Assembly: GCA_963788655.1 (NCBI GenBank)
Contig: CAWBHS010000043.1
Span: 1 to 64,000 of the forward strand
DNA length: 64,000 bases
Source: an uncultured Verrucomicrobiae bacterium
Lineage (GTDB): Bacteria > Verrucomicrobiota > Verrucomicrobiia > Limisphaerales > JAFGQR01
Reading direction: 5' to 3'
The notes beneath the pieces were generated by a model. It did not search any database, was not told where the DNA came from, and saw only the letters and a program-made list of their open reading frames with translations. Made by a program: the position numbers and the translations under genes. This document shows positions 724 through 53,466 of the stretch, one piece after another; position 1 is the first letter of the stretch; every line of letters starts with the position of its first letter.

Positions 724-1935
724 ATGAACACCACCTACCAAGCCATTCAGAAACGCGCCAAGGCGCTGGAAAAAGAGACCGTCCGCTTCCTGGCGGACAT
801 CGATCCGCACCCCATCCTTTTCCTCGAAGGAGAAGAAGGTCATTGCCGTCATCAGGAAGGAAATGAAGAAGGTCGGCTTCGACGAGATCCGCGTTGACGG
901 CTTGGGCAACATCATCGGGCGGATCGGCAACGGACGCGCGTGATCGCCTTCGACGCCCAATGGACACCGTCTATCCCGGCGACCTCGAGCAGTGGGACTT
1001 CGACCCGTTCAAGCCGAGCGTCAAGGACGGCAAGATCTGGGGCCGCGGCACGGTGGACCAGAAGGGCGGCATGGCCGCGATGGTCTATGCGGCGAAGATC
1101 ATCAAGGAGCTGGCGCTCAACGACCAGTTCACCATCTATTTCACCGGCACGGTCATGGAGGAGGACTGCGACGGCCTCTGCTGGCAGTACCTGCTCAATG
1201 AGGAGAAGCTCAAGCCGGAGTTCGTCGTCATCACCGAGCCGACCAACCTGAACATCTACCGCGGCCATCGCGGCCGGATGGAGATTCGCGTCGAGGTCAA
1301 AGGGCGGAGCTGCCACGGCTCGGCGCCCGAGCGCGGGGACAACGCCATCTACAAGATCGCCCGCATCGCGCTGGAGATCGAGAAGCTAAACGAGCGGCTT
1401 GCGCGACGATCCGTTCCTGGGCAAAGGCACCGTCACCGTCAGCGAGGTGCGCTCCTCGTCGCCGTCGCTCTGCGCGGTGGCCGACGGGGCCGGCATTCAT
1501 CTCGACCGCCGGCTGACCGCTGGCGAGACAAAGGCGAGCGCCCTGACCGAGGTGCGGGACGCGGCGAAGCGGGCCGGGCTATCCCGACGCGAAGGTTTAC
1601 GTGCTCAACTACGCCGAGGCGGCCTACACCGGCAAGGTGTATCCCACGGAGAAGTATTACCCAACCTGGGTATTGGAAGCAGAAGTCGCCCTACCTAAAA
1701 GACGCCGTGGCGGCTTACAAGGGCGTGCTGGGCAAAGACCCACTGGTGGACAAATGGACGTTCAGCACGAACGGCATCGCAATCGCGGGCATGGAAGGCA
1801 TCCCTGCCTCGGCCTCGGCCCGGGCAATGAAGTCTATGCCCACGCCCCGAACGAAGCGTGCCCGGTGCATCATCTCAGCGCCGCGGCTGCCTTCTACGCC
1901 GCATTGGTGGCAAGCCTTAATGGAAAGGTTCATGA
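724..1935 (+). CDS. ygeY: YgeY-family M20 (ArgE/DapE-like) hydrolase, frameshifted
   Basis: ATG at 724 (MNTTYQAIQ); [87 protein letters not shown]. Confidence 0.85.
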
Positions 1936-3163
1936 CCCCATTCCTCTATTACTGCACCACCTGCGGGAAGCGTATCGGCGCGACGAGGTGCGTTACCTCT
2001 GCCCAACCTGCGCGCCGATTACCGGCCCGGCATGCCGCTCCTCGGTGTGCTCTCCGTCCAATTTGACTACGCAGCCATCAGGCGGCAATTCCGAAAGCAA
2101 AGCCCGGACTGGAGTCTCTTCTCCGCGGTTGAGCCGAAGCACTATCCGCCCTTCCCGGCGGGCAACACGCCATTCTTCCCGGTGGCTGCCCTGGGCAAAG
2201 CGCTCGGCTTCGACAATGTCTGGCTCAAGAATGACGGCCTGAACCCCAGCGCCTCGCTCAAAGACCGCGCTTCGTTCCTCGTCGTGGCCGAGGCCAACCG
2301 GCTCAAGGAGCCCTCCATCGTCACCGCCTCGACCGGTAATGCCGCCAGCGCCCTGGCGGCCGTCTGCGCCGCCGCGGGCAAGCAGGCGATCATCTTCGTC
2401 CCGGCAACCGCGCCCAAGGCCAAGCTCGTGCAGATGGTGCTCTATGGCGCGCACGATGATTCCCGTGCGCGGCACCTACGACGATGCATTCCGGCTATCC
2501 CTCGAATACACCGCGCGCAAGGGCGGCCTCAACCGCAACACCGCCTACCATCCCCTGACCATCGAAGGGAAGAAGACCGTCGGCCTGGAAATCTACCAGC
2601 AGAACGGGTTGAAGGCGCCGGATGCGATCGTCGTGCCCGTCGGCGACGGCGTGATCATCAGCGGCGTGCACAAAGCTTTCCACGACCTGAAAGCGGCAGG
2701 GTTGATCTCCAAACTGCCGCGGCTGGTCTGCGTCCAGGCGGAGCGCTCCGCCGCCATCCATCATTACCTGCGCACCGGCAAGTATCAGAATGCCCGGCGC
2801 CCCGCCACCATCGCCGACTCGATTTCCGTCTCGACCCCTTCGAACGCGCACATGGCCCGGCGAGCAGTCATGGAAAGCCGGGGATTCTCCATCACCGTCT
2901 CCGACAGAGAGATACTGCGTGGTCAGAGACTGCTCGCGGAAAAGACGGGCGTGTTCGCGGAACCGGCGGCGGCCGCAACCGTGGCGGCTTTGCGGAAGCT
3001 GCAAGGGTCGAACTTGCTGGGCCGCAAAGAACAGATCGTGCTCCTCATCACCGGCCACGGTCTCAAGGACGTTGACGCCGCCCTGAACAGCATCCGCATT
3101 CCGCCCTCGATCGAGCCAACCTTGGAAGCACTGGATTCCTTACGTGCCTGCGCCCGACAATAG
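1932..3163 (+). CDS. thrC: Threonine synthase-like PLP-dependent enzyme (fold type II), frameshifted
   Basis: N-terminal CTTC...CPTC zinc ribbon; KNDGLNPSASLKDR (PLP lysine), ASTGNAA, VPVGDG, FAEPAAA, ITGHGLKD. Confidence 0.75.
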
Positions 3164-3177
3164 TCACCAGATTACTT

Positions 3178-4563
3178 ATGAACAGAAGAACCAAACGATC
3201 GTATTGGCCAGCCCTCGTGGGCCTGGCCGGTTCCCTCGCCTTTACTGCGGCGACCGCCCCTGTGCCGAACCAGAACTGGCCCGAGTGGCGCGGCCCGCTC
3301 CAGAATGGCGTTGCGCCCGACGCCAACCCTCCCACCACCTGGAGCGAGACCAGCAACGTCAAATGGAAGGCAAAGCTGCCCGGCAGCGGCTACGCCACCC
3401 CCATTATCTGGGAGGATCGGGTCTTCATCCAGACTGCGATTCCGACGGGCAAGAAGATCGAGGCGAAGGCCGCCGAGACGGGCGAGCAGCCGCCTCGCAA
3501 GGACAACAGCCCCGGCGGCAGAAAGGGCCGGGGCGGCTTCGGCGGCGGCGCCAAGCCGACGGAAGTCTATCAATTCGCCGTGCTCTGCCTGGACCGTCAG
3601 ACCGGCAAAGTGCTTTGGCAGCGGGTCGCCCGCGAGGAGGTCCCGCACGAGGGCTATCGCCAGGGCGAGGGCAGCTTCGCCTCGTCTTCGGGCCTTACCG
3701 ACGGCAAACACTACTACGCCTACTTCGGCTCGCGCGGCATCCATTGCTATGCTCTCGACGGCAAACCGCTCTGGAGCCAGGACCTGGGCAAGATGCGCAT
3801 GGCCATGAGCTTTGGCGAGGGCAACTCGCCCGCGATTTACCGCGACACCCTCATCATCAATCGGGACAACGAGGATGACTCGTTCATCGTCGCGCTGGAC
3901 AAGAACAACGGCAAGACGCTCTGGAAGATGCCACGCGAGGAAGGCACCTCGTGGTCCACCCCGCTGATCATCGAGCGCGACGGCAAAGCTCAGGCGGTGG
4001 TCGCCGCGACCACCAAGATCCGCAGCTACGACGTGGCCTCCGGTGAAGTGCTCTGGGAATGCGGCGGGCTGACTCGCAACGTAATCCCGTCCCCGGTCGC
4101 CGACGCCAACACGGTCTATTGCATGAGCGGCTTTCGGGGCAACGCCTTGCTGGCCATCCGCCTCGGCCGCACCGGTGACCTTACCGGCACCGACGCCATC
4201 GCCTGGACCCACAACAAGAGCACCCCGTATGTGCCCTCGCCGTTGCTCTACGACGGCAAGCTCTACTTCTTCGCGAACAACAATGGGGTGCTCACCTGCC
4301 TGGACACCAAGGCCGGGACTCCCCTGTTCGAGGCGCAGAAGCTAGACGACCTGTCGGGCGTCTATGCCTCGCCGCTCGGCGCCGCCGGGAGAGTCTATCT
4401 TGTGGGCCGAAACGGCGCTGTCGTTGTGCTCAAGCAGTCCGACAAGCTCGAAGTCCTGGCCGTCAACCGCCTCGAAGAGAAGTTCGACGCCTCGCCCGCC
4501 GCTGTCGGCAAGGACCTCCTCCTGCGCGGACGCGAGCACCTCTATTGCCTGTCCGAGAAGTAG
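3178..4563 (+). CDS. Secreted PQQ-binding-like beta-propeller repeat protein
   Basis: Intact 461-aa ORF; signal peptide, WPEWRGP, SWSTP, PYVPSPL, YASP and FDASPA motifs typical of PVC PQQ-like propellers. Confidence 0.85.
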   Translation: MNRRTKRSYWPALVGLAGSLAFTAATAPVPNQNWPEWRGPLQNGVAPDANPPTTWSETSNVKWKAKLPGSGYATPIIWEDRVFIQTAIPTGKKIEAKAAETGEQPPRKDNSPGGRKGRGGFGGGAKPTEVYQFAVLCLDRQTGKVLWQRVAREEVPHEGYRQGEGSFASSSGLTDGKHYYAYFGSRGIHCYALDGKPLWSQDLGKMRMAMSFGEGNSPAIYRDTLIINRDNEDDSFIVALDKNNGKTLWKMPREEGTSWSTPLIIERDGKAQAVVAATTKIRSYDVASGEVLWECGGLTRNVIPSPVADANTVYCMSGFRGNALLAIRLGRTGDLTGTDAIAWTHNKSTPYVPSPLLYDGKLYFFANNNGVLTCLDTKAGTPLFEAQKLDDLSGVYASPLGAAGRVYLVGRNGAVVVLKQSDKLEVLAVNRLEEKFDASPAAVGKDLLLRGREHLYCLSEK

Positions 4564-5028: not shown

Positions 5029-5883
5029 ATGTGTGCAGCAGAGTGTTTGCGAGTGCGGCCGGTTGACTGGCTCTTGGCCGGCAGCTTGATGGTTGCCACC
5101 TCGTTGGCCGCTCCGCCGCCCTCAGGCCCGCACAACGGCACTCCGACCAACCGGCCCACGCATTCCGTCAAGGGTGCGCCACGCGACCACGCTACCGGCA
5201 CGAACGGCCTGGCCTTGCCGCCGCTGCCTCGACCCGCTCCGGCCCGCCGCGCGGACTTGGCTGCTGCCTTCGCCAAGACCGTGCCAATCTCGGTCGGCGA
5301 TCTCAGGGCCATCGAGCGGCACATTAAAGCACTCGCAGCCCGTGTGTCGCCGGCGGTTGTGGCGGTCGAGATCGGCAGCGGCAGCGGCAGCGGAGTTGTC
5401 GTCTCCGCGGACGGCCTGGTGCTGACCGCCGGGCACGTCTGCGGGCGGCTGGGTCGCAGCGTGCGCTTCACCTTCCCGACTGGCAAGACCGCGCGGGGCA
5501 AGACGGTGGGCGTTGACTTCGAGAGCGACACCGGCTTCATGAAGATCACCGATCGGGGCTCGTGGCCTCATGCGGCCATGGGCGACCTGGAGCAGGCGCG
5601 CATCGGCGACTGGGTGCTCGCGCTGGGCCATCCCGGCGGCTTTGATCAGCGGCGGTCACTGGTCGTGCGATCCGGGCGCATCATCCAACTGGCGGACGAC
5701 GCTCTCCAAACCGACTGCACCATCGCTCCGGGCGACTCCGGCGGACCGCTCTTCGACATGCATGGCCGCGTCATCGGCATCCACAGCGCCATCAGCTATT
5801 CGGTGTCGGATAACTTCCATGTTGCAATCACCGAGTTCTACCACACCTGGGAAGTGCTGGCGAAGGGGGCTGACTGGAGGTGA
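5029..5883 (+). CDS. S1C trypsin-like serine protease
   Basis: GSGVVVSADGLVLTAGH, DTG and PGDSGGPLFD give an intact triad; start codon uncertain. Confidence 0.85.
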   Translation: MCAAECLRVRPVDWLLAGSLMVATSLAAPPPSGPHNGTPTNRPTHSVKGAPRDHATGTNGLALPPLPRPAPARRADLAAAFAKTVPISVGDLRAIERHIKALAARVSPAVVAVEIGSGSGSGVVVSADGLVLTAGHVCGRLGRSVRFTFPTGKTARGKTVGVDFESDTGFMKITDRGSWPHAAMGDLEQARIGDWVLALGHPGGFDQRRSLVVRSGRIIQLADDALQTDCTIAPGDSGGPLFDMHGRVIGIHSAISYSVSDNFHVAITEFYHTWEVLAKGADWR

Positions 5884-5908
5884 TGGTCAGGGCTGCCTCC
5901 CGATAGCC

Positions 5909-6963
5909 ATGAATCCGCGTTTCATCTCCAACCGCGCCGCGCCGGTCTTGGCGCTTGTGCTGCTCTGCCTGACACAGCATGCGGGGGCGCAGGATTACCG
6001 CATTTCTCCCGAGCTGCCGCGCGATCGCTACCGGAACGGGGAAGAGACCTTGCGCGCCTTCGCCCCGATCTCGGCCGCGACCCGGCACTCAATCGTGAAG
6101 CTCAATGTGGACGGCGCAACCGTCGCGCTGGGGGCCGTCATGGATGCCAATGGGCTGGCCCTGACCAAGGCCAGCGAGCTCAAGAAGGGCAAACTGACCT
6201 GCTGGCTCGCCACCGACAAGGAAGTGCCAGCGGAGGTGATTGCCATTGATGAAGACGAGGATGTGGCGCTCGTGCGCGTGCACGCCCGGGGCTTGAAGCC
6301 GATCGCGTGGGCTACGGACGCAGTTGCCGTGGGGCAATGGGCCATCACGCCCGGCATCGCCAACACCCCTCATGCCGTCGGCATCATCAGCGCCCTGCCC
6401 CGCCGGATACGCCCCGCGCGCGCCCTCATCGGAGTCCAGTTCGACTACGGCACTACCACGCCGAGAATTGACCAGATCCTTCCCGGTCTCGGCGCCGAGA
6501 AGGCCGGGCTGAAGCCTGGCGATTTGATCGTGGCCGTCAACGGCGCGGGGGTGACGAATCGCGAGCAGGTCGTCGAAACGCTGCGCGAGTTCCGCGAAGG
6601 TCAGAGTGTCAAGTTGCGCCTGCAACGCGCGGAGAAACCGTTTGAGGTGCAGATCCGCCTGATGGTGCCGCGGTCCGGCGAGCCGGGCTCGGAATTGTAT
6701 TATCAGCGGGAGGCCGCCGCCTGAGTGGTGCAGTCAGCGAGCGGGCGGCAGGGTTTGAGCAGGCCATCGAGCACGACTCCGTCCTGCGCCCCTGGCTCTG
6801 CGGCGGCCCGCTGGTAAACCTCGAGGGCAAGGCCATCGGCCTGAACATCGCTCGCGCCAGCCGCGTGACCACCTACGCCCTGCCGGCCAGCCTAGTGCAG
6901 ACGGTGTTTGATCACCTCAAATCCATCCCCAAAGCCCGCGCTGTCGGGAGACAAATAGCGTAA
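5909..6963 (+). CDS. Secreted trypsin-like pseudoprotease with internal PDZ domain (indel near 6720)
   Basis: Signal peptide; LTKASE in place of the His motif; PDZ (GAEKAGLKPGDLIVAVNG); after the frameshift EHDSVLRPWLCGGPLVNLEGKAIGLNIARA, stop TAA at 6961-6963. Confidence 0.75.
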
Positions 6964-6977
6964 CTTCCCGAGCCCGA

Positions 6978-7500
6978 TCACACCAACGTTTCGAGCGCCG
7001 TGCGGACACGGCCCACAATGCCGGGCAACGCCTCCTGCAACGCCGGCGTCAGGGTCGTGCCGACCGTAAACGGGTCTTCCACTTCGATCGCGAGGATCTT
7101 CACCTGCTCCGGCATCGGCAGTCCCAACTGCCGGCCCAGCGCCAGCGTTTCGCTCACGCCCAGAAAGTGCGGCGTGCGGCCGGTCAGTTGCCTCAATGCA
7201 CCCGGCATCGAGCTCATGAATAAAGCCCGGCTCCGCCCTGCCGTCTGGATCGAGTCCACGATGAGCACCGTGCGGTAGCCGGTGATGAAATCCAGCAGCG
7301 CCAGGCCCATCTCCGTCGTCTCGCGCAGGTCAATGGCCGGATCGCCGGCCAGCTCGCGCTGGAGTTCGTGGACAACGCGCAGGCCGATGGCATCGTCGGT
7401 GAGGATGTCGTTTCCCAGGCCGAGGAGAAGGACGCGCGCAGCCGGAGCGGGCGAAGTTTCGCGGCGCGGCGGTGGTTTCGAGCGCAGGGCCGGAGCATGG
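6978..7500 (-). CDS. Hydrogenase maturation endopeptidase (HycI/HybD family)
   Basis: VLLLGLGNDILTDDAIG...MGLALLD...LIVDS...PH; directly downstream of the hydrogenase large subunit; start approximate. Confidence 0.85.
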
Positions 7501-17738: not shown

Positions 17739-18638
17739 TCACTTTGCCGCCGGGGCCGCTTCGGCCTCCTGCGCTTCTTTGATCGCCGGCATCACCGCCA
17801 CCAGCTCCGAACCGATGCCCAGCCGCTGGGCGGCAGGCCCAGCGCCAGGCCCATCAGTTGCGTGAAATACATCACCGGCATGTTGAATTCGGTCCCGAAT
17901 TCGGTGTTCACCTGCTTTTGGTAACACTCGAGGTTCACCTGGCAGAGCGGGCAGGCCGTGACGATCACCGCCGCTCCCGACCGGACCGCGCTCTCGAGGA
18001 GATTGCGCACCATGCTCAGCGCGGCCGCGCGGTTCATAATGATCAGCGCCCCGCCGCAACAGGTCAGCCGCAACGGGTAAGGCATCGGCTCGGCGCCGCA
18101 CGCGGCCACGAGTTCCTCGAAATACTTCGGCTCCTCGACGTTCTCCTTGGCGTGCTTCCGGGGACGTAGAATCTGGCAGCCGTAATACGCCGCGACGCGC
18201 AGCCCCTGGAGCGGATTTCTGACCTTGGCTTTGACCTCCGCCAGCCCCACGTCATTCACAAACACCTCGATCAGGTGATGCACCGCCGACTCGCCCGAGA
18301 ACTTGAGGTTGTCTTCGGCCAGCGCCGCGTTGATGTGCTCCGCCAGGTCCGCGTCGTGCCGCAGGGCGTCCCGCGTGAAGGTACATGTTCTTGTAACATC
18401 CGCTGCACGGCGACACGAGCGGCAGTTGCTGCTTCTCGGCCATCGCCAGGTTCCGCGCGCAGAGCGTGTAGGCCAGCAACTGGTCCACGTGGAAGTAGGC
18501 CGTCGCGCCGCAGCAGTTCCAATCCTCCAGCTCCTGAAGTTCCACCCCCAGCGCGCGCGAGGTCTCCAGCGTCGATTCATGATAGCTGTGCGCCATCTTC
18601 TCCAGCGAGCAGCCCGGGAAATATGCGTAGCTCTTCAT
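17739..18638 (-). CDS. hdrB: Heterodisulfide reductase subunit B, frameshifted
   Basis: YAYFPGCSL, WNCCGA, SPCSGCY, YYGCQ, LTCCGG, TACPLCQVNL, YFTQLMGLALG. Confidence 0.9.
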
Positions 18639-19252
18639 TCCTTGTCTCCCAACGGGATGATGTGCCGGATCATGCGCTTGAAGTTGTCCAGCCGCTTGAT
18701 CCGCGCCGGCAGCAACGGGAGCCGGCCTTTGAGCATCAGCGAGGTGGCGGTCTGGGCCTCCTGGATCATTTCCGGCAGGCCGTAGGTGAACAGGTAGGTC
18801 GTCGCCAGGACCGGTTCGTAGGACCTGCCGCTGCGCAGGATCATTTTCACAAACGTCTCGGAGAACACCGGGCCGATCAGGCCGTCCTGCGTCTGGGTCT
18901 TCCACACCGTGTAGCGCTTCAGCCCGTACATCAACTCCGCGATGTCGATGTTCCGCGGGCACCGCACCGTGCATTGGTAGCACGAGGCGCAGTACCAGTA
19001 GGTGTTGGCCTTGAGCACTTGCTCTTTGAAGCCCGAGCGGATCAGCGCGATGATTCGCCGCGGCGAATTGTCCATGAAGCCCCCGGAGGCCACCGGGCAG
19101 GTCGCCGAGCAGGTGCCGCACTGGATGCAACTGTTGATCGGGTTGCCCTTGGCGGCGTAAAGCAGGTGGCCGATTTCCTCGACAAAGGACACCCCGTTGT
19201 CTGGGGGCGGAGTCGCGGTAGCCGTGGTGGTCTCTGCAACGGCCGGGCTCAT
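18635..19252 (-). CDS. hdrC: Heterodisulfide reductase subunit C
   Basis: CIQCGTCSATCP and WYCASCYQCTVRCP; ATGA overlap with hdrB. Confidence 0.9.
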   Translation of the reverse strand: MSPAVAETTTATATPPPDNGVSFVEEIGHLLYAAKGNPINSCIQCGTCSATCPVASGGFMDNSPRRIIALIRSGFKEQVLKANTYWYCASCYQCTVRCPRNIDIAELMYGLKRYTVWKTQTQDGLIGPVFSETFVKMILRSGRSYEPVLATTYLFTYGLPEMIQEAQTATSLMLKGRLPLLPARIKRLDNFKRMIRHIIPLGDKE

Positions 19253-19671
19253 TTGCTCATGGCCTTTCGCGCTCCGGCGGTCTTGAGCAGGGCCGCCACC
19301 TTCTCGAGCAGGAGTTTGGGCGGGACCGGCTTCTCCACCAGCTCATCCACCGCCACGAAGTTGGGGTGCACGGCCTGGCCGGGGAACAGGAACGCCATCT
19401 GTTCGCGAATGCCGGTGATGATCAGCACGGGCAGGTCGCGCAGCTTCGGATCCTTGCCCAGCTTGCGGGCAATCATGATCCCTTCGGCCCCGCGTCCCAT
19501 CATCACGTCCAGCAACAGCAGGTCGTAAGTCTTCGATTTGAGGGCTTGCAGACCGTCCTTGGGGTTGTGGGCCACGTCCACCGCGTACTTGGCCTTCAGC
19601 AGAATGGACTTGATGCCCGCCACAAAGTCGGGGTCGTCGTCAATGATCAGCAGTTGTTTTGGCTCGCTCAT
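19249..19671 (-). CDS. Stand-alone response regulator receiver protein
   Basis: LIIDDD, LLLDVMM, IITG and EKP receiver motifs; 140 aa. Confidence 0.88.
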   Translation of the reverse strand: MSEPKQLLIIDDDPDFVAGIKSILLKAKYAVDVAHNPKDGLQALKSKTYDLLLLDVMMGRGAEGIMIARKLGKDPKLRDLPVLIITGIREQMAFLFPGQAVHPNFVAVDELVEKPVPPKLLLEKVAALLKTAGARKAMSK

Positions 19672-20806
19672 ATTGAATCTTTCGTTCAGGAATTGGACTC
19701 GATTGCGCCGCGCCCTGCCCCACTGGCAGGTGAATCGTAAAAGTGCTGCCCTTGCCGGACTCGCTCTCCACCGTAATGCTGCCGCCGTGCACCTCGACGA
19801 TCCGGTGGCTGATGGCCAGGCCCAGGCCGCATCCGGTCACGCCTTCAGGTTGGGACTGACCCCGCGCGAAGTCCTGGAACAGGTGCGGCAGATCCTCTTT
19901 GGCGATGCCCACGCCTGTGTCCGCCACGGACACCAGCACCTCCGAGTTCCGGGCTTCGGCCCCGCACCTGGATCTTCTTGTTCGGAAAGCTGTATTTCAC
20001 GGCATTGCCCATCAGGTTCACCAGCACTTCCGTCAGGCTGCCTTCGTCGCCGTTGATGGGCGGCAGCGCATTCGCAACGGCAGCCTGGATCTCGATGGCT
20101 TTGCGCGTCGCGTGCGGCTGAACCGACTCCACCGCCTTGGCCACAACCTCGCCCACGCCGAGGGGCCGGAAGGTGTCCTTTAACTTGTTGATGTCCACGG
20201 TGAACACCCGCAGCCAGGAGTGGATCAGCTTGAGCAGGTCGTCCAGGCGCGACTGCAGGCGCGTGAACCGCTGCTGTTGCTCCTCCGAAAGTTTGTCTTC
20301 CAGCTCGCCCGCCAGCCCGTAAAGGCTCTGCTGGAGGGCGCCCAGGGGGGACTTCAGCTCGTGCGACACAATGGCCGCGAAATTCTCCCGCAGCATTTCC
20401 TTTTCCCGACGCAGGGCCACGGTTTGCTGCACCAGCCGGCTGTGTTCGAGTCCGCGTTTGGCGATGAGCCGCAGTTCCTCGGGTGTGAACGGCTTGGGCA
20501 GGAAATCAAACGCCCCTTTCTTCATCGCCTCCACCGCCGAGCTCACCGTGGCGTAGCCGGTGATCACAATGACCACTATCAGCGGTTGCCTGGCGCGGAT
20601 GCGTTCCAGCACTTCCAGGCCCGAGAGCCCGGCATCTTCAGATCCAGGAAGACCAGGTCAGGCTGCAGGTTCTCCAGCGCCTGCAAACCCTCGGCTCCAT
20701 TGCCGGCCGTCGTGACCCGGCAATCGCTGCCGTCGAGCACCGAGATGCAGGAATCCAGCACCACTTCCTCGTCGTCTATTACCAGGATTTTACGCTTGGG
20801 CTTCAT
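19640..20806 (-). CDS. Hybrid receiver-histidine kinase, frameshifted
   Basis: LVIDDEE...DLKMPG...KPF; SHELKSPL; NLMGNAVKYS; DTGVGI; GLGLAI. Confidence 0.87.
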
Positions 20807-34860: not shown

Positions 34861-36020
34861 ATGAGCGGCCAAAGCTTCATGGATGCAATACAGGAATGGA
34901 TGCGCCACCACGCGCTGAGCGTGACGGTGATAGTGGTGGTTACCATCGTGGCCCTCAAGGTGGCCGCGGTGCTGAACCGGAAACTGTTTGCCAAGGTGTT
35001 CAAGGACAAACCGGACGAGGATTCGCAGAAGCTGGCGCACACGGTCACGACCGCCGTGCATTGGGTGGTAACGATTGCCATCCTGGCAGTGGCCGGGAGC
35101 GTCCTGCTCAACGAGATCGGCGTGAGCATGCAGCGGGTGTTCAACCGGGCGCTGGACTGGCTGGTGAGCAACGGCCTGGGCATCGCGATTATCGTGGCCA
35201 TCATGTTCGTCGCCTTGAAAGCCGCCACCCTGCTGGCCGCCAAGCTGGGGACCTTCCTGAACCGCGACAAGCTGGACAACGAGTCGCAGAAGCGCGCCGA
35301 CACGCTCAGTTCGGTGATCCGCTGGGTCATGCGCACAGGGATCCTGCTCGTGGCCGCCGTGATGCTTCTGGGCAAACTCGGCGTCCAAATCGGGCCGATC
35401 ATTGCCGCCGCCGGCATCGTGGGCTTGGCCGTCGGCTTTGGCGCGCAGAACCTGGTGCAGGACGTGATCAGCGGCTTCTTCATGCTGCTGGAAGACCAGG
35501 TGCGCGTGGGCGACGTGGTCAGTCTGAATGACAAGGGCGGTCTGGTGGAACAAGATCACCCTGCGGATGATCATCCTGCGCGATCTGGCCGGCAACGTTC
35601 ACTACGTCCGCAACGGCCAGATCGACCGTCGTGACCAACATGACCAAGGAATACTCCCGCTACGTCTTCGAAATCGGCGTGGCTTACCGCGAAGACACGG
35701 ACGAGGTCATCAAGGTGGTCGAGGCGGTGGACAAGGAATCCGTGCAGGACGATGCCAACTTCAAGGACGATATCCTGGCGCCGATCGAGAGTCGTCGGCG
35801 TGGACAAGTTCGCCGACTCGGCGGTCGTGATCAAGGCCCGCATCATGACCAAGCCGATTCAGCAATGGCGCATGGGCCGGGAGTTCAACCGTCGCCTCAA
35901 GAACAAGTTCGACGAGCTGGGCATCGAAATCCCGTTCCCGCACATCACGCTCTATCCGGGCAAGGACAAGAAGAACGATTCCCCACGCTCAAGGTCGAGG
36001 TCCAGGGCGACGGGCGCTAA
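34861..36020 (+). CDS. mscS: MscS-family mechanosensitive channel, frameshifted
   Basis: AAAGIVGLAVGFGAQNLVQDVISGFF, EDQVRVGD, GVAYRED, FADSAV, GIEIPFP. Confidence 0.9.
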
Positions 36021-36082
36021 GCGATCCGCCTAGGCGGCCATGCGGGCATACTGAGCAGACCGCAGGATGCGCGACAAAACCG

Positions 36083-37996
36083 ATAGGGGTAGGGACAAGG
36101 GGTTGAACCTTGCCCCTCCCTCCGAACCGGACAGGCGGGTCTCCCGCATCCGGCTCTCCGGTCAGTGGGTTCGCATCGCTGCGATTGTCCGCGTCCACTC
36201 GTGTTCTGCCGCCAAACTCAGCAGCCCACGGTGGGCAAACCATTCATTGGGCCAGCGGTGATGGGCCGCCCCAATCCCTTTGCCCCGCCCATCGCGCCGC
36301 CATTGCAGCAGGCTGCTGCAGCCTCCGCCGCACATAGCCGTCCACCCCGTGAACGTGTTCGCCTGGCTGTGCTGGAAATATCCATACCAGCCCCGCAGGG
36401 TCCGGTTCAGCGTCGGCCAATGATGGCCTGGAGGTTCCGCCCTTCCAACCGCGAGGTCTGCTCCCGCACCCGGTCTTTGAGCTTCTGGAGGCTCTTGGAG
36501 CGCGGCCATTTCATGCCCCGCTCGAAGTGATACCCCAGGAAGTCAAACCCTCCGGGCTGCGTCGCGTCCACGATCCGCGTCTTCTCGGGATGCAAGCGTC
36601 AGTCCTGCCTCGCTCACCCATGCCTTCACCGCCGCTAAGGCGGCATGCGCCTCGGCGGCGCTGCGACACAGGATCACGAAGTCGTCCGCATAGCGCACCA
36701 GCTCCCATCCCTGCCCGGCCATCTGGTGGTCCAGCGGGTTAAGATACAGGTTGGCCAGCAGCGGACTGATCACGCCCGCCTTGCGGCGTGCCTCGCTCGG
36801 TGGGCTGCCAGCCTTTGGCTCTCCTCCAGCACCCCGGCGCGCAGGAAACTTTCCACCAGCGCCAGCACCCGCCCGTCGGCCACGCGCTGTTTTACCAGCG
36901 CCAGTCAGCCGTTCGTGCGGGATGGTGTCGAAGTAGCTTTTCAGGTCGGCATCCACCACCCAGTCCTGACCCGCTCCGGAGCAGCGTGTCCACCCGCCGC
37001 AGCGCGTCCTTGGCCCCGCGTCCCCGGTCGGAAGCCGTAGCTCTGCTCGGCAAAGTCCGTCTCGAAGATCGGTTCCAATACGTGCCGCAGCGCCCCTTGC
37101 ACCGTGCGGTCGCGCACCGCCGGTATGCCCAGCGGTCGCTGCTCGGCTGCTGCCGGGCTTGGCCATCCAAGCCCGCCGTACCGGTTGCGGCCGATACGTC
37201 CCCTCCCGCAGTTGTTCGTGCAGTCGCTGGAGCTCTGCCTCCGCGTGCCGCGCGAAATGTCCCACGGTTTGGGCGTCCGCCCCCGCGCTCCCGCCGTTGC
37301 GCCACACCTTGTGAAAGGCGCTTTGCAGATTGGCGGGCGCATAGATCTTGTCCACCAGCGCGAACCAGACCCGGTTTGCTGGCTCACCACTCGTGAGCCG
37401 CCTCAACATGCGCTCCGTCCAGACACTCCGTTCCACCCATCCCCATCGGTCCAGGGCTTCTCCGGCTTGCGTAGGCGGCCTTGCTGCCGCCACTGGCGCC
37501 AGTTTGTCTTCGTCGTTCTGTTGCTTCACGCATCCACTTTCCTGCGTCCCTTCGCTCCACGGTCGTTACCCGCTTCCTCGCTACTACGGACGCTCTGACT
37601 CCCGCCGGGCGGTTCTTCGGGCCACTGCGGCCATGAACGCCGCTTTGGCCCCGGCGGGCCTCCCTGATTACGGTCGCAGGGACTTCCGGCCATTCCGTCT
37701 CCAACCATCGGCGCGTCGTCCGGGGGCTCGCCCGGATGTCCGGCGTTTCGGCTCCTCGCCTATCGCCCGCGCTACAGGCTTCGCCACTCACTCGAAGGCT
37801 CGCCCGCCCACGCCGACCGAATCGAGTTCACGGCGGACTGCCCTCCCGGAGCCGTCTGTGTTACGGACTGGTCGTTCTCGTTCCGTTGCTCTCCACCCCG
37901 CCTCGCGGCGACGCAGTTACGGTTCGATACCTCACGGCTCTTCGCCGCAAGGGAACGGACTCTCACCGTTCTGTCTCCACGCCCTCTCAGGCGCAC
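36083..37996 (-). mobile_element. Group II intron, complete, with RT/maturase ORF
   Basis: 5' end GTGCG at 37996; domain V GAGCCGGATGCGGGAGACCCGCCTGTCCGGTTC (AGC triad); domain VI ending CCCCTAT at 36083. Confidence 0.92.
36162..37529 (-). CDS. ltrA: Group II intron reverse transcriptase/maturase, no endonuclease domain, frameshifted
   Basis: [68 protein letters not shown]. Confidence 0.92.
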
Positions 37997-38063
37997 GAGC
38001 GCGGACATTCTTGTCCGCTTCGGGGGCAACGGGCGGCTGGGCGGACAGGAATGTCCGCGCTCC
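37997..38063. repeat. REP-like inverted repeat forming the 5' exon of the intron
   Basis: GAGCGCGGACATTCTTGTCCGC-N22-GCGGACAGGAATGTCCGCGCTCC; each arm is itself palindromic. Confidence 0.85.
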
Positions 38064-38240: not shown

Positions 38241-40918
38241 ATGAAGCAGAAATCGAGAGCGGAACGCGGGCCGAGCGGCTGCGGCCACGATGCTCGCCAA
38301 CAAACACGCCCTCCGCGGGCGAGCGGTTCCATGGCCATCGTCGGCATCGGCGCCTCCGCCGGCGGGCTGGAGGCGCTGGAGCATTTCCTGGGGCACGTGC
38401 CGGCGGGCAGCGGCATGGCGTTCGTCATCGTCCAGCATCTGGACCCGACGCACAAGGGCATCATGCCCGAACTGCTCCAGCGCACCACCGGCATGAAGGT
38501 GATCCAGGTCAAGGATCGCACCCGGGTGCAGCCGGACTGCGTCTATGTGATCCCGCCGAACAAGGACATGTCGATCCTGCACGGCGTGCTGCACCTGCTC
38601 GAACCGGCGGCGCCGCGCGGACTGCGCCTGCCGATCGATTTCTTCCTCCGCTCGCTGGCGCAGGACCAGCAGGAGCAGAGCATCGGCGTGATCCTCTCGG
38701 GCATGGGCTCCGACGGCACGCTGGGCCTGCGGGCCATCAAGGAGAAGGCGGGCGTGGTGCTGGTGCAGGAGCCGGCGTCGGCCAAGTTCGACGGCATGCC
38801 GCGCAGCGCCATTGACGCCGGGCTGGCGGACATCGTGGCCCCGGCGGAGGAGCTGCCCGGCAAGATCCTCGCCTATCTGCAGCGCACTCCGCTGGTCGCC
38901 CAGCCCGAACCGGCCGCTGGAAGACAAGGCGCAGAGCGCCCTGGAAAAGGTCGTCATCCTGCTGCGCGCCCAGACGGGCCACGACTTTTCGCTCTACAAG
39001 AAGAACACCCTCTACCGCCGGATCGAGCGGCGCATGGGCATCCACCAGATTGACAAGATCGCCGCCTACGTCCGGTACCTGCAGGAGAACTCCGCAGGAG
39101 CTGGATCTGCTGTTCAAGGAGCTGTTGATCGGCGTGACGAGCTTCTTCCGCGATCCCGGCGGCGTGGGAGCAGTTGACGAGACGAGGTCATCCCGGCGCT
39201 GCTGGCGAGCCGGCCGGCCGGCCAGGCGCTGCGGGCCTGGGTGCCCGGCTGCTCGACCGGGCGAGGAGGCCTATTCCCTGGCCATGGTGTTCAAGGAGGC
39301 GATGGAGCAAGCTCAAGCCCGCGGAAGAGTCTACGCTGCAGATCTTCGCCACCGACCTGGACCGGGACGCCATCGACAAGGCCCGCCAGGGCGTCTTCCC
39401 GGCCAACATCGCCGCCGACGTGTCGCCGGAGCGGCTGAGCCGGTTCTTCGTCAAGGAGGAGCGACGGCTACCGGGTGCGCAAGGAGATCCGGGAGATGGT
39501 GATCTTTGCCCCGCAGAACCTCATCATGGACCCGCCCTTCACCAAGCTGGACATCCTGAGCTGCCGCAACCTGCTGATCTACCTGACGCCGGAGATGCAG
39601 AAGAAGCTCATCCCGCTGTTCCACTACAGCCTGAATCCCGGCGGCATCCTGTTTCTGGGCAGCGCGGAGACCATCGGCGGCTTCACCGACCTGTTCGCCC
39701 CGCTGGACGGCAAGGCGCGGCTCTTCCGGCGGACGCGAGTCCGCGCTGCCGGCCGGAGCCGGTCGAGTTTCCCTCCTCGTTTGCCGCCGGCTCCGCCGGA
39801 CGTGCCGGAGCGCCGCACGGCGCCGAAACCGCCGGCCAGCCTCCAGTCGCTGGCGGACCAGTTGGTCCTGCAGCACTACTGCCCCGCCGGCCGTGCTGGT
39901 CAACGACAAGGGCGACATCCTCTACATCAGCGGCCGGACGGGCAAGTACCTGGAGCCGGCCGCCGGCAAGGCCAACTGGAACATTTTTGCCATGGCCCGC
40001 GAGGGGCTGCGCTACGAACTGACCGGCGCCTTCCAGAAGGCGCTCCGGCAGAAGGGCACGGTGACGCTGCAAGAACGTGAAGGTCGGGACCAACGGCGGC
40101 GACGCAGTCCGTGGACCTCACCGTCCAGCGCGCTCGACGAGCCGGAGCCGCTGCGGGGCATGGTGATGATCGTCTTTACCGACGTGGCCGCGCCTCCGGA
40201 CACCAAGACGCCGGGCCGACGCCGAACAGGCGCCTGCGCACAGCCGCGCGGCTGGCGGAACTGGAGCGGAACTCCAGCAGGCCCGCGAGGAGTTGCAGAC
40301 CACCCGCGAAGAGATGCAGACCTCGCAGGAGGAACTCAAGTCCACCAACGAGGAACTGCAGTCCACCAACGAGGAACTCCAGTCCACCAACGAGGAACTG
40401 ACCACCTCCAAGGAGGAGATGCAGTCGCTGAACGAGGAACTGCAGACGGTCAACCACGAGCTGCAGGCCAAGGTGGACGAGCTGTCGCCGGCCAACAACG
40501 ACATGAAGAACCTGCTCAACAGCACGGACATCGCCACCGTTGTTCCTGGACAACGACCTCCAGCGTGCGCCGGTTCACCACCCAGGCGACCAAGATCATC
40601 AAGCTGATCCCGGGCGACGTGGGCCGGCCGATCACCGATCTCGCCTCCGACCTGCTCTACCCGGAACTGGCCGACGACGCGCGCGAGGTGCTGCGGACGC
40701 TGGTCTCTGTCGAAAAACAGGTCACCGCGCGCGACGGGCGCTGGTTCACGGTGCGCATCATGCCCTACCGCACGCTGGACGACCGGATCGACGGCGTGGT
40801 GATCACCTTCGCGGATATCACCGCCGCCAAGACGCTGGAAGCGGAGTTGCGGGAGAAGCAAGCCAGTTTGGAAGAGCGCGTGGCAACCCAAGCCGTGAAA
40901 CTGAGCCGGCGAAAATGA
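38241..40918 (+). CDS. CheB-CheR-PAS fusion protein, frameshifted
   Basis: [63 protein letters not shown] coiled coil, PAS (RIMPYRT). Confidence 0.9.
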
Positions 40919-48341: not shown

Positions 48342-49064
48342 TCAATCCTGTTTCATCAGGGCAGCAAGGGTTGGCTCCATGGCCTCGGCCCAGAGTTGGT
48401 AGCCTTTCGCGCTCGGATGAACGCGGTCGGGCATGATGGTTTTTGGAATCGAACCATCCTCCTCGAGGAAGACTTTTCCGATGTCGAGATACTTGATCAT
48501 TTTGCCGTCGTCGAGCTTGGCGATCGCCTGATTGATCTCCTTGATCTGGAGGCGGTAGGGGGAGTCCGCGGTCGCACGGGGAAAGATGCCCAGGAGCAAC
48601 AGCTTGGTCTCGGGAAGTCTGGCGCGGATTTCCTTCACGATGGCCGTCACCCCCTCGATCACTTCGGGGATCGAGTTGCGCGGGGAGCCATCCTTCTCCT
48701 TGCCAAGGTTGTTGGTGCCGATCATCAGCACGACAACCTTCGGTTTCACCTGGTCCAATTCGCCATTTTCGATGCGCCAAAGGACGTATTGGGTGCGATC
48801 ACCGCCGATGCCGAGGTTCAACGCGTGACGCGGGGCGTAGAACTTTTTCCAGACCTCCAGCCCCCGGGTGCGCCACCAATCCGTGATGGAATCGCCAAGG
48901 AACACCAGGTCGCACGGCCCCTGCTTCGCCTCGGCGAGGAACGCTTCATGCCGTGAAACCCAATTGGTCTTCGTCAATCGGGGAGCGGGAACGACCGCGG
49001 TGTTTTCAGCAAGCGCCAGGGTAGTCAGGAGGACCCCAATAACAAGCAGCAATGATTTCTTCAT
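48342..49064 (-). CDS. SGNH/GDSL esterase (PAF-acetylhydrolase-like)
   Basis: FLGDSIT, GIGGDRT, MIGTNN, DRVHP; signal peptide. Confidence 0.9.
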   Translation of the reverse strand: MKKSLLLVIGVLLTTLALAENTAVVPAPRLTKTNWVSRHEAFLAEAKQGPCDLVFLGDSITDWWRTRGLEVWKKFYAPRHALNLGIGGDRTQYVLWRIENGELDQVKPKVVVLMIGTNNLGKEKDGSPRNSIPEVIEGVTAIVKEIRARLPETKLLLLGIFPRATADSPYRLQIKEINQAIAKLDDGKMIKYLDIGKVFLEEDGSIPKTIMPDRVHPSAKGYQLWAEAMEPTLAALMKQD

Positions 49065-49232
49065 GTGAACAGTAACCAGCAATATGTTGCGTTAACCCGG
49101 TCTCCAGCGACAGGCCCGCGCGAGCTTCGCTCTGGAGGCCGAGAACCGGCGCCCGTTCAAGCTACCGAAGCTGCCCTGCTTTCCGGGTCGCGGAGCGGCT
49201 TCAAGTGTTACAGCAAACCGAAGCAACACGCC

Positions 49233-51516
49233 TCACTTCACCAACCGATAGAACTTCATGCCTCCAACTTGATTGGTCAGCACGTAATCCTCACCCTGAA
49301 CCGTCCCCGCCCCCTCCGATGTCCACGTCGAGGACGAGATATCCGTGGTTGATTCGACAGTGAAGCCGACAGCATTTGTCGGCCAGGACAGGATCACGTC
49401 TGCGCCGGACGGCGAGATGCTGAGCGTTGGCCGGTAAGGCAGGATCGAGAAAGCCGCCAGCCCGTTGTTAGCGGAGATGGCAAACACCTTGTCCTCCGCC
49501 CAGATAATCTTGCCGATCAGGTAACCGTTGTTCCAATGGTTCGTGGGGAAATTGTACTCTGCCAAAAGCAGGGGCAGGTTGAGGTCCGAGATTTCATAGA
49601 GCCGCACAGGGTCAGGGATGGTGTCCGTCCTCGGGTTCTCGATCCCCAAACCGAGATTCCTTTGGAAATCCAACGCCACCGGGACCACATTCGGATTCCA
49701 GTCGGGATAAGAGGCCAGGATCGTGCTGTCGAACGTATTGACGTCATACTGTGCCAGAACGATAGGCCCGCCTTCACGATGAGCCCAGTAGGTGTTGTTA
49801 GTGCCAAACGCAAGTGACCGACCGATGCTGCTGTTGGCATAGTGATTGGCGAAGGCAACGGTGTTCAGCCAGAAACTGTCGAGGTCGGCGCTCGCCGGAC
49901 GGAACAGAGCCGCCCAATTGCCTTCATACGAATCGGCGATGATTTCCGTGTTGGTTCCCGATCCGCGGGCATCCAGCGCGTCCCCCAGCCGCTCGCTGGC
50001 CATGCTGGGAGGAATCCCTCCCCAGATGGCGACCGGCACGGTATTGGAATCATCGTTGGCCCATCGGTAAAGGCGAAATGACTCTGCCACATCGGTGTTG
50101 CAGGCGTAAATCGCGCCATCATCGGCCACCGCGATGGAATTCAAGGTCAGATTATTCGCTCCGCCGAAGATGATACTTGTGTCGGTGTTCATTTGGTAAA
50201 GCTCCTCGCCGGTGGTCCCGTCCAGCACCCAAATGGCCGGATCGCCCGAACCAGTCACGATGTTGGTCCGGCTGACCAGGTACAGGTGATTCGAGGGTGC
50301 GTAGTAGGCGATGCACCTTTGTTCCGGGCGGGAGCCGATGTCCGACGTGAGGTACGGGCGGTTGGTGACGACGTCCATGATGGACGGAGCGATGCCCCAC
50401 AGCGGAGCGAGCCGGGGATACACATCGCGGAGCACAGTGACAACGGCCGGCCGAACTAACCAGGGAAAGAGGGGGATTTGACACAATCACGGTGTAATTT
50501 CCAGAATCGGCAACCTGCGCGTTCGGAAATGACGAGACTCGAGTCGGTGGCTCCCGCAATGGGGTTGCCGTTCCATTGCCACTGGTAACTGGTGGCGTCG
50601 GGGCTGTTCACCTCGAGTTGAATGGCTTGCCCAACCAACAAACGTTGGGACGCGGGCTGGGTGTACAGATTGAGAGTGGGCCCTGCCCCCATGGTCACAT
50701 CTGCCCACTCCGTGCCAAAGTTCAACTCGTCGAAGAGGATGGTCTTGGCCATGCTGGAATGGCGGTTGCAGAGCATGAAACTCACGATGCTGGAAATGTC
50801 AGTTCCAACACTGTTGGTCAATGTGGCGGGCGGCTCGCTGACGCCTCCCAAGGTCCCGGGGTCAGGATTTATCCACGCCCGCACCACATCGTCCGAGGTG
50901 GTGCCGGAGTTGAACTCGTAGCTGATGACCATGAGGATGGGGACGCCAGCGCTGAAGGCGTTCGTATCCCAACTGTAGTTGGATGTCGAAGAGCTGTTCT
51001 TGACGACGCCCACGTTGAATTTCGTGGAGTCGTTGCGCGTCCACCCGGGCCGCAAACCGGGCGTATGCTGCGCTTGAGGGGAAGGTGTTGGTCGTGCCGC
51101 TGTCGTTGTTCAGCGCCACAAAGTAGTATCCGCCACCCAGCCGGTGGGGTCATCGATTTGAAAGATGAAGGAAGCATACAAGGTCCCACTGCCGACAGCA
51201 CTGGGCAAAACGTAGCGCGCGGCGAGCCCTCCCGGGAGCGTGCGCCCCCCCAGTTGCACCTTGTTTCCGGTGGCGTTTGTCAATCCAGGATAGGTGATGT
51301 TGCCGGCAACACCACGGGCTGGTTTGTCAGGGTCGCGTCGTCGCCAGCCTGTTCCCAATAGCCTCCATCGGAATTGCTCTGCCCGATCAAATTCTCGCCG
51401 GGGGTGTAGTTGAAGTGTTCACTGGAGATGACTCCAGCGAAGGTCGAGGTTGAGAAGATCGCTGCGGCCGTCGAGAGGGCCAACGCTTTTTCAATGATGT
51501 TGGTGTGAGTTTTCAT
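49233..51516 (-). CDS. Secreted protein with lectin-like region, Ig domain, DUF4623-like propeller and C-terminal FYRL domain, frameshifted
   Basis: MKTHTN... signal peptide; FDELNFGTEWADV; TQPASQ...YQWQWNG..I.GAT; VADDGAIY, FRLYRW, ERLGDALDARGSG; ends KFYRLVK. Confidence 0.72.
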
Positions 51517-51583
51517 GGTTTTTCGATTCACGCTAACCGGAGTGGCTCTTGAGTGGTGGCGATTTGCCAGGATGGTTGGTTGT

Positions 51584-52399
51584 TCAGTTGTAAGGTGTAA
51601 GTTGTATCCCGTGATCCTCCGATAACTCATAGCGGTAGTTCCACTTGGCTCTTCCGATCCATTCGCTATGGCCATCGGCAAAAACCACGTTGCCACCGTC
51701 CTTGCCATGGCCGTAATAGGGATTGGGATAGTTTTGCCACGGCCAATCGGGTTTGTGCGGCTCCATGCCGTCCATGATGACGAACGTGCCGCTGGGTCCG
51801 GCAATGTTGCCTTTCATCGGGTCGGAGTGTTTTGCGTAACTTGGAACCGAGCGGGTGGTTTTGCGCGGGTAGTTCGCCGACTTGTTGAACCAACAACCGA
51901 AGACTTCGTAACTGTGTCCGTTGGTGGCAGTTCTGCCGGTCGCCTTCTTCTCCAAATCCACCAGTTTTTCGAGAAGTTGGCCCTGATAGAACGCCTGGTA
52001 CTTCTTGTTGGGGTCCACTGCGTTGCGGGTTGTCGGGCAAACGAAGGTGCCCACGTTCTTGATGTAGCCGGTGGATCCAAAGCCATACAGCCAGTTCATG
52101 TCATCGTCTGCCTGTTGGTCTACCGGCGTAGTCTTCAGCGTGCCCGTCAACCGGCCCTTGGAGTCGTCGTCCGCATACATCTGGCTGCCCAACCCCATCT
52201 GGCGGGTGTTGTTCAAACAACTGATCCGCCGGGCTTTGTCCTGGGCCCTGCTCAAAGCCGGAAGCAGCAGGGCCGCCAGAATGGCGATGATCGCGATGAC
52301 GACAAGCAGTTCAATTAACGTGAACCCACGGGCTGCCGTTCGTCGCAGGTAACAACGTCCTTGTGAATCGTTTCCATGGATTGGAGACGCCTGGCTCAT
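51584..52399 (-). CDS. Prepilin-type N-methylation / H-X9-DG domain protein (DUF1559-like)
   Basis: [46 protein letters not shown]. Confidence 0.92.
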
Positions 52400-52439
52400 A
52401 TATACCTTGGGACCTTAGCGAAACCGGGTCTTGCCGGGT

Positions 52440-52457
52440 ATCCTCATTATTAGGGAT
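52440..52457. promoter_or_regulatory. Operator-like palindrome, copy 1 (ATCCTCATTATTAGGGAT)
   Basis: About 40 bp upstream of the prepilin ATG; matches the sites at 63024 and 63787. Confidence 0.6.
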
Positions 52458-52468
52458 GCTCCCCGCTC

Positions 52469-53466
52469 AGCGCCCGTCCATGCTCACCTCCACCCCCGCC
52501 GATTCCACCGCGTCGATAAACATCGGCGAGGTGAACTGCGAGCCTTGATCGGTGTTGGAGACCAGCGGCGCCTGCCGTCCGGCCCGCAGCGCCGCCTCCC
52601 AGGCATCCACACAAAAGGCCGCCTCCAGCGTGTTGCTCAACCGCCAGCCCAGCACATAACGGCTCCACCAATCCATCACCGCCACCAAATACATGAACCC
52701 GCGGGCCATCGGCACATACGTAATATCCGCACACCAGACTTGGTCCGGCCCCGTCACCGCCAAATCCCGCAACAGATACGGATAAATCTGGTGCCCCGGC
52801 GCGGGCACGCTCGTCTTGGGCTTGGCGTAGATCGCCTCGATCCCCATCAGCCGCAGCAGGCGCACCACCCGCTTGCGATTGATGGCCACTCCTTCCCGGC
52901 GCAAGCTCGCCGCCAGCTTGCGACTGCCGTAAACCGGATGCTCCAGGTGCAACTCGTCCAACCGCCGCATCAGCGCCAGGTTCTCCTCCGTCTCCGGAGC
53001 GCACTGGTAATAGTAACGTGCTGCGGCACAGGTCCAACAGCTCGCACTGGTGCCGCACACTGACTTGTGGGTCCGGACCGATCAGTTCTTGCAGGCATGT
53101 TACAATCCCAGTTGCTTGGACTTTTTTTTAAGCCAGTCCAGGTCCACCGTCAGTTGGCCGATCTTCTGATGCAATTGCGCGATCAACTGCTCCTGGTCCT
53201 CCGTCCCCGGCTTGTCCGGGCTCGAACAACTCGGGCAGGTGATCCCGAATCGTCGCCCGCCATTGCGTCACCTGCGTCGGATGCACCGCATACTCTCTCG
53301 CCAATTGCGAGACCGTCTTAAGCCCCACCAGGGCTTCGAATCCCACTTTGGCCTTGAAGGCCGCACTATGCCGTTTGCGTTTTGCTTTCATAGTCTGCTT
53401 TCTCTTCTCCAGCAGACCAGCGAAAGTCCATCTTAACTGGTGGTCCAGTTTTTGGGGTCCACCTCA
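52469..53466 (-). mobile_element. IS3-family element, truncated (left IR, orfA and partial orfB)
   Basis: End TGAGGTGGACCCCAAAAACTGGACCACC at 53466; orfA MKAKRKRHSAAFKAKV from 53391; A8G slippery site at 53121-53129; orfB YGSRK, WCADITY, DWWSR, NTDQGSQFT stops at MDGR before the third DDE residue; no right IR. Confidence 0.9.

Follow-up and report, generated by a model that had tools for sequence, protein, structure and literature searches.

A probable non-class-C lineage of endonuclease-less group II introns at DNA hairpins, viewed from a copy in an uncultured Verrucomicrobiae bacterium

What places a group II intron in the closing base pair of a repeated DNA palindrome? The question is raised by a 64,000-nt stretch of DNA from an uncultured Verrucomicrobiae bacterium (the window; positions 1 to 64,000 of contig CAWBHS010000043.1, assembly GCA_963788655.1), in which a 1914-nt intron runs on the minus strand from 37996 to 36083, beginning with GTGCGC and ending with CCCTAT. 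The intron splits a palindrome that resembles repetitive extragenic palindromic (REP) elements, and the initial annotation, made from the sequence alone, proposed that a lineage outside class C (IIC) homes to this REP family. The analysis described here agrees with the first part of that proposal and not with the second. With a probability of roughly 0.8, the window intron is a copy of a lineage of group II introns without an endonuclease (En) domain, whose site choice is like that of class C although the lineage is not class C.

A GUGCG 5′ end, a CUAU 3′ end and a catalytic triad identify the element as a group II intron, and domains V and VI (36158-36083) match the Rfam family Intron_gpII (RF00029) with 52.1 bits (E 2e-8; gathering score 40). 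Alignment and profiles of homologous introns set both ends to the base, at the positions first proposed. The absence of an endonuclease domain from the reverse transcriptase (RT) was also correctly described, as an intact relative, P0001 (447 aa), has RVT_1 and GIIM as its sole domains. Coordinates of the individual features are collected in Table 1.

Hairpin and exon pairing across the lineage

Relatives of the intron were sought in 60 genomes of the same order and in the window's own genome, 15 of these 61 giving a match, and a second scan of species genomes with the intact P0001 RT as query yielded 40 loci. At the end of nearly every 5′ exon of the lineage stands a GC-rich stem-loop, separated from the intron by 3-4 single-stranded bases. 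Near-identical loci (L058-L061) and three sites with fewer than 22 exon bases on the contig were removed, leaving 28 non-redundant sites, and a strict hairpin rule was applied to these (perfect stem of at least 6 bp, loop of 3-5 nt, tail of 2-5 nt). Twenty of the 28 sites conformed to the rule, compared with 1027 of 200000 random positions in the window's own genome (0.51%), an enrichment of about 140-fold. Among 26 exons folded by minimum free energy, 18 had a tail of 3 or 4 nt. This tabulation of homologue exons upholds the earlier suggestion that insertion is guided by hairpins. The hairpin sequences are mutually unrelated among the 28 sites, and what is conserved is therefore structure and register.

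Intron-binding site 1 (IBS1) is made up of the five bases that end the 5′ exon. Its partner, exon-binding site 1 (EBS1), was located in a terminal loop of domain I by covariation, with 35 domain I sequences aligned in MAFFT and pairing tallied over 34 introns. In the window, EBS1 and IBS1 form five pairs, one of which is G-U. All five pairs are present in 26 of the 34 introns and four of five in another 5; the remainder comprises two truncated exons, in which every known base is paired, and one misfit. About 18 distinct combinations of the two sites were observed (for example CGCTC/GAGCG, CCCTA/TAGGG, CCCTG/CAGGG, CCTAC/GTAGG, CGGCA/TGCCG and CGTTA/TAACG), and the EBS1 column is complementary to the last 5 exon nt in 19 of 24 non-redundant introns, against 7 of 24 for the runner-up column. 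A different loop, at 37719-37736, which pairs with four exon bases, had initially been put forward as a candidate EBS1; it was rejected, as no covariation with the exon is found in that region. A search for EBS2 among the alignment columns did not yield one, the best column against exon positions -6 to -18 reaching 7 of 24 and permuted exons reaching 8-10 of 24.

The combination of hairpin and IBS1 is also valid in cultured Burkholderiaceae plasmids. On pBN3 of Paraburkholderia aromaticivorans, the intron copies follow ACCGC-GTCA-GCGGT and TTAGT, and their EBS1 reads ACTAA. One pBN3 locus (L097, record positions 104914-108630) contains two identical introns head to tail with zero intervening bases. 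As its 5′ exon the downstream intron has the 3′ end (domain VI) of the upstream one, which is mismatched to the downstream intron's own EBS1, so that this tandem probably did not arise by ordinary retrohoming.

Several members of the lineage have lost the open reading frame (ORF). Derivatives of 693-777 nt with a reduced domain IV were found at L014, L015, L018, L017 and L032 (genomes G004, G005, G041, G053 and G006, respectively). Such ORF-less forms are common in related genomes and environmental contigs, where they occupy the same type of hairpin and IBS1 site.

The target, then, is a short hairpin rich in GC, with a stem of 6-9 bp, a loop of 3-4 nt and its base 3-4 nt upstream of the site of insertion. 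The 5-nt IBS1 pairs with the 5-nt EBS1 in the domain I loop, and the hairpin takes the place of IBS2. By analogy with En-less and IIC introns, a particle of lariat RNA and RT would reverse-splice into transiently single-stranded, folded DNA at replication forks, and the nascent strand would then serve as primer.

The REP-like palindrome as a landing site

Removal of the intron rejoins the palindrome as initially described, with the C at 36082 pairing with the G at 38063 and closing the stem. Folded as DNA, the rejoined site forms a stem of 15 bp, a C/A mismatch and 7 bp (-27.7 kcal/mol). Each arm also contains a small hairpin of its own. That of the 3′ arm, GCGGACA-AGAA-TGTCCGC (38018-38001), is followed by the 4-nt tail GCTC, a geometry common to targets of the lineage. 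In the 23-nt 5′ arm, the unit read on the plus strand is followed by GCTCC and presents a second target-like site, which is unoccupied. The hairpin beside the window intron is the 3′ half of the REP-like inverted repeat, the outer stem GGAGC/GCTCC supplying IBS1 and the next C. The description of the intron as lying exactly in the last base pair holds as to position, and it does so because the outer stem contains IBS1 (CGCTC) and the C that follows it.

A genome-wide count confirmed that the palindrome is multicopy. The own genome contains 53 GCGGACA-N3-6-TGTCCGC units in 33 clusters, 20 of which are complete inverted pairs; 43 units have the GCTC tail, with none for the reversed control pattern, and 1 of these 43 potential targets is occupied. 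The repeat is a multicopy short palindrome but lacks the conserved GTAG-type head of REPs, elements associated with a RAYT (Y1 transposase), and we name it REP-like only; of the 12 Y1_Tnp matches in the own genome, none has so far been tied to the repeat. Units with the GCTC tail are present in 9 of the 61 genomes of the order, at 11 to 73 units each and zero for the reversed control, and the same pattern was not found in the sole genome of the same genus (G001, 93% complete). This patchy spread suggests that the repeat itself is mobile or short-lived. For the intron, REP units are a convenient, harmless and multicopy source of hairpins and not the specific target.

In genome G000, a subfamily of the repeat is bordered on both sides by about 25 conserved nt, GTTGAGACTAATGCGGAA... 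and ...GATTGAAGTCTCATCTTGAA, with copies at C9:98029, C50:9710, C60:20801 and 229157, C68:3377, C72:259362, C76:38582, and C87:29589 and 36409. This subfamily looks like a larger unit, resembling a miniature inverted-repeat transposable element, built around the palindrome.

Class assignment and competing explanations

Published descriptions, cited here and below from the portions available, list as features of class C a CGC triad, a distal domain V stem shorter by 2 bp, an epsilon-prime AGGAA bulge, an IBS1 of 3-4 bp and the absence of EBS2 (Toor 2006, PMC1702495). Three plasmid introns (L092-L094) were taken as class C references, two of which, L093 and L094, lie inside class 1 integron cassette arrays. 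These three have the CGC triad and a distal stem of 3 bp, whereas the window intron has an AGC triad and a distal stem of 5 bp, as the initial annotation had noted in calling its domain V full-length. The hairpin, the short IBS1 and the lack of EBS2 are shared with class C, with an IBS1 of 5 nt rather than 3-4. The D1D4 models of Rfam gave no match to the window intron (E up to 10) or to its relatives L043, L055 and L057; the IIC introns L089 and L092-L094 scored 134-141 bits with RF02001 and 58-67 bits with RF01998. One lineage member, L082, has a weak 34-bit match to RF02001.

An IQ-TREE phylogeny of 37 RTs was constructed, in which the drawn root is meaningless, since the outgroup L089 proved to be IIC. 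The labelled references were one class D, one g1 and one g3/F RT, chosen with Tables S1 and S2 of Toro and Martinez-Abarca 2013; the pSymA record is NC_003037.1. All 22 lineage rows, among them a Cupriavidus plasmid intron, fall into one clade with 100/100 support, and the five IIC-type RTs that make up the class C sample (L080, L089 and L092-L094) lie across a 100/99 branch from it. Against solved IIC RTs in the PDB, the true class C RT of L093 scored 376-419 bits, P0001 190-229 bits, the g3/F RT Ni.ha.I1 164-180 bits and the class D RT 145-149 bits. The lineage is not class C by its RNA, nor by its RT as far as sampled, in agreement with the assignment first made.

Several observations weigh against this reading and the mechanism that accompanies it. 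The strict hairpin rule is broken at eight of the 28 sites, most of which still fold into imperfect stems, and that the particle recognises the hairpin is inferred from the statistics of the sites. No alignment column convincingly tracks the first base of the 3′ exon, and EBS3 was not located because that base is C in 17 of 21 relatives. At the REP site the long hairpin is favored over the two small ones (-27.7 vs. -16.5 kcal/mol) and buries IBS1. In these folding models, IBS1 would become accessible only if the outer 5 bp frayed or if the small hairpin of the 3′ half folded kinetically or locally; with either fold, the stem abutting IBS1 would have the same 3′ strand. The phylogeny separates the lineage from the IIC-type RTs in a tree without classes A, B, E, CL, ML, g2 and g4-g6, with deep nodes at 50-67. 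Among solved RTs, the one most closely related to P0001 is of IIC type, and the unclassified U1/U2 intron-encoded proteins (IEPs) have been placed near class C (Miura et al. 2022, PMC8919778). The lineage may accordingly be sister to class C and not have invented the targeting strategy on its own.

Homing to the window's REP family, with the intron reading the long palindrome and inserting at its last base pair, was the mechanism favored at the outset. Three introns drawn from two RT subclades (the window copy, L043 and L067) do lie at the identical position of one REP motif, five copies in a single Acidobacteriaceae metagenome-assembled genome (MAG; L057-L061) all lie in another repeated palindrome, and the window REP is multicopy. 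These three are, however, the only ones of the 28 non-redundant sites to use this family; the other 25 have unrelated hairpins, and most sites of the lineage are single hairpins of other sequence. The distribution of the repeat points the same way: G004 has 47 such units, yet its intron relative L014 lies at a different hairpin; G019, G041 and G053 have intron relatives but no such REP was seen in them; and G031, with the most units of all (73), has no intron match. IBS1 would moreover be paired and inaccessible in the long-hairpin form. The table of sites largely refutes homing to the REP family, which we regard as improbable. Still less credible is that the hairpins are not recognised at all, with the 5-nt IBS1 alone directing insertion and survival bias enriching for copies at terminator-like or REP positions between genes. 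Hairpins in such intergenic DNA are neutral ground, and the EBS1-IBS1 interaction is the sole one demonstrated by covariation. Nevertheless, the register is too exact for such a bias, with the base of the stem 3 or 4 nt from the junction at most folded sites; the strict rule is far more often satisfied than at random positions; and a word of 5 nt can be found thousands of times in a genome, for the most part away from hairpins. We give this explanation very little credence.

The remaining competitor is that the window intron is a divergent member of class C, as could be argued from its hairpin and short IBS1, lack of EBS2, small size and lack of En, from the IIC RTs that are its best solved relatives, from the RF02001 match of L082 and from the position of U1/U2 next to C on the tree of Miura et al. 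Set against this are AGC in place of CGC, an unshortened distal stem in domain V, the lack of any match to RF02001 or RF01998 in the window intron where four IIC introns match strongly, the 100/99 branch that parts the RT clade from the five IIC-type RTs, and PDB scores far under within-class values. Membership in class C seems to us decidedly unlikely, and a lineage with class-C-like site choice outside that class is the reading that we retain.

How much of this lineage has been described before? Targeting of hairpins or terminators is treated as peculiar to class C by Zimmerly and Semper 2015 (PMC4424553) and Waldern 2020 (PMC7306698), and the same view appears in the introduction of Gomes 2025 (PMC12584367). 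The initial annotation likewise took it as the hallmark of class C, a statement that is dated in light of Miura et al. 2022 (PMC8919778), where g6 and unclassified U1/U2 IEPs, near C on the tree, are reported immediately after predicted rho-independent terminators. Table_3 of that paper records four introns of P. aromaticivorans pBN3 as 'Unclassified', with the subtype among U1-U3 unstated. The pBN3 RT is 96% identical to the Cupriavidus RT of L082, which falls within the 100/100 clade; by RT sequence, then, the lineage corresponds to these 'Unclassified' IEPs. The lineage and its link to terminator-like sites are thus partly in print already. The available text of Miura et al. gives a distance statistic only: it states no EBS1-IBS1 rule, EBS2 or domain V type and, unlike the present analysis, gives no REP targets or ORF-less derivatives.

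Three further systems invite comparison. Class C introns such as B.h.I1 and the attC-type integron introns (PMC1702495, PMC4424553) are alike in lacking En, in having a stem-loop 5′ exon with a short IBS1 and no EBS2-IBS2 pairing, in their intergenic sites and in their length of about 1.9 kb. They differ in their triad (CGC, against AGC in the lineage), their shortened distal stem and their IBS1 of 3-4 nt (5 in the lineage), as well as in matching the RF02001 and RF01998 domain I models and falling outside the lineage's RT clade. Sonbol and Siam 2021 (PMC7923331) describe IIB introns (CL1, class E) of halophiles that lie next to attC-like structures. These are similarly non-IIC introns beside folded DNA, but in the part of that report available they are few, mostly truncated and of other IEP classes, with no covariation evidence. 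REPs are also known as landing sites for mobile DNA from the work of Tobes and Pareja 2006 (PMC1525189), with 2 of 9 copies of an intron associated with REPs in Pseudomonas putida KT2440; the organism, REP family and intron are different, and no intron mechanism is given in the portion available. A literature search for non-C lineages that target hairpins turned up Sonbol and Siam 2021 and Miura et al. 2022 alone. The literature searched did not yield the rule of EBS1-IBS1 pairing, the lack of EBS2 or the non-IIC type of domain V, nor did it yield insertion at REPs, the ORF-less forms of 693-777 nt or the fact that the lineage is abundant in MAGs of Verrucomicrobiota and Acidobacteriota.

The lineage is known from Verrucomicrobiota, Acidobacteriota, other soil and sediment MAGs, and Burkholderiaceae plasmids, and more than 120 protein clusters are at least 80% identical to P0001. 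A wider proposal, which to us is evenly balanced between true and false, is that recognition of a hairpin with a very short IBS1 is not peculiar to the IIC ribozyme and is shared by a second, very abundant En-less lineage with an AGC triad, an unshortened domain V, many ORF-less derivatives and REP-type landing pads. Such recognition would then have arisen twice, or would be ancestral to a larger En-less group in which the IIC ribozyme was later reduced. A second lineage with another catalytic core and the same target logic would provide an independent system for studying how a ribonucleoprotein reads a DNA hairpin, and would tell whether hairpin targeting among En-less introns is ancestral or convergent. 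Paraburkholderia and Cupriavidus plasmids offer cultured sources for mobility assays. The site choice proposed here would also account for retroelements collecting at REP-type intergenic palindromes, and for annotation, the EBS1/IBS1 rule and the ends GUGCG ... CCUACCCCUAU should give exact boundaries where the Rfam domain I models miss.

Condition of the window copy and neighboring elements

Table 1. Features of the intron and its insertion site, in window coordinates
Feature	Position	Strand	Basis
Group II intron, 5′ GUGCGC ... CCCUAU 3′	36083..37996	minus	Sequence, Rfam, homologue alignment
RT/maturase frame in domain IV, without endonuclease domain	36162..37529	minus	Frameshift-aware alignment
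EBS1 GAGUG, in the 11-nt domain I terminal loop GCC-UUCGAGUGAGU-GGC	37789..37793	minus	Covariation; RNAalifold consensus loop
Domain V, 33 nt: AGC triad 36155-36153, 5-bp distal stem GCGGG/CCCGC, AGA loop	36124..36156	minus	Sequence, Rfam
Domain VI and 3′ end; ending CCUACCCCUAU kept across the lineage	36083..36122	minus	Rfam, homologue comparison
IBS1 CGCTC, last five 5′ exon bases	37997..38001	minus	EBS1 pairing, covariation in 34 introns
First base of 3′ exon, C; IBS3 candidate, closes the long REP stem	36082	minus	Sequence, fold, relatives
Palindrome 5′ arm, GGAGCGCGGACATTCCTGTCCGC, containing its own small hairpin GCGGACA-TTCC-TGTCCGC	38041..38063	minus	Sequence, family, fold
Spacer/loop between REP arms, 22 nt; sequence variable among REP copies	38019..38040	minus	20 complete copies compared
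Palindrome 3′ arm up to the splice site, GCGGACAAGAATGTCCGCGCTC, 22 nt	37997..38018	minus	Sequence, lineage site comparison

The branch point is presumed to be a candidate bulged A at 36090, placed by its position in domain VI. The RT frame of the window copy is broken, a feature absent from the initial annotation. Comparison with the intact RT of L055 required ten frame corrections (eight 1-base skips and two 2-base skips), near positions 37148, 37024, 36975, 36905, 36814, 36777, 36596, 36414, 36346 and 36315. After correction, 379 of 463 residues are identical to the L055 RT (82%), with zero in-frame stops, and YADD and the other RT motifs are retained. The window copy is probably inactive. 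No second copy of the window intron was found in its own genome, a MAG of 8.96 Mb in 115 contigs that is 86% complete.

The intron lies antisense between the 3′ end of an MscS-like gene and the start of cheB (CheB_methylest match, E 1e-58), both on the plus strand. The flanking host genes are frame-split as well (34861-36033 and 39050-40918, plus strand), with MscS-like domains spread over two frames, a CheR domain over three, and overlapping PAS/histidine-kinase ORFs; elsewhere in the window there are long intact ORFs of 918, 738 and 730 aa. Because the neighboring host genes are broken as well, assembly error is a live alternative to decay. The region from 34.8 to 42 kb consists either of successive pseudogenes or of sequence in which the assembly is locally prone to error, decay and assembly error being inseparable here. 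The best public read run contains 0.23 of the words of the stretch, and the four runs compared contain relatives only. Some of these relatives lack the additional base that the window copy has next to three of its frame breaks (36774, 36821 and 37021), and some skip 1389 or 1404 nt and are ORF-less forms, with joints at 36158/37548 and 36168/37573 in run X1.

Two other sets of introns were encountered. The surroundings of the class D reference L091, on plasmid pBpOF4-01 of Alkalihalophilus pseudofirmus, contain three RT genes and two domain V/VI matches within 4.2 kb (49000-53200) and are nested or adjacent intron copies. In genome G000, loci L002-L013 represent an unrelated second intron family with five near-identical copies and intact 492-aa RTs, at C107:~1436-3300, C68:~5260-7180, C60:~18516-20440 and ~345943-347870, and C39:~88430-90357. 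The 8-10 bases after GTG vary by copy in this family (GTGCGATCC, GTGCAATCC, GTGTCAATTC, GTGCTCTCT and GTGTGCATTC), and the copies are identical from GGAAAGCGCC on.

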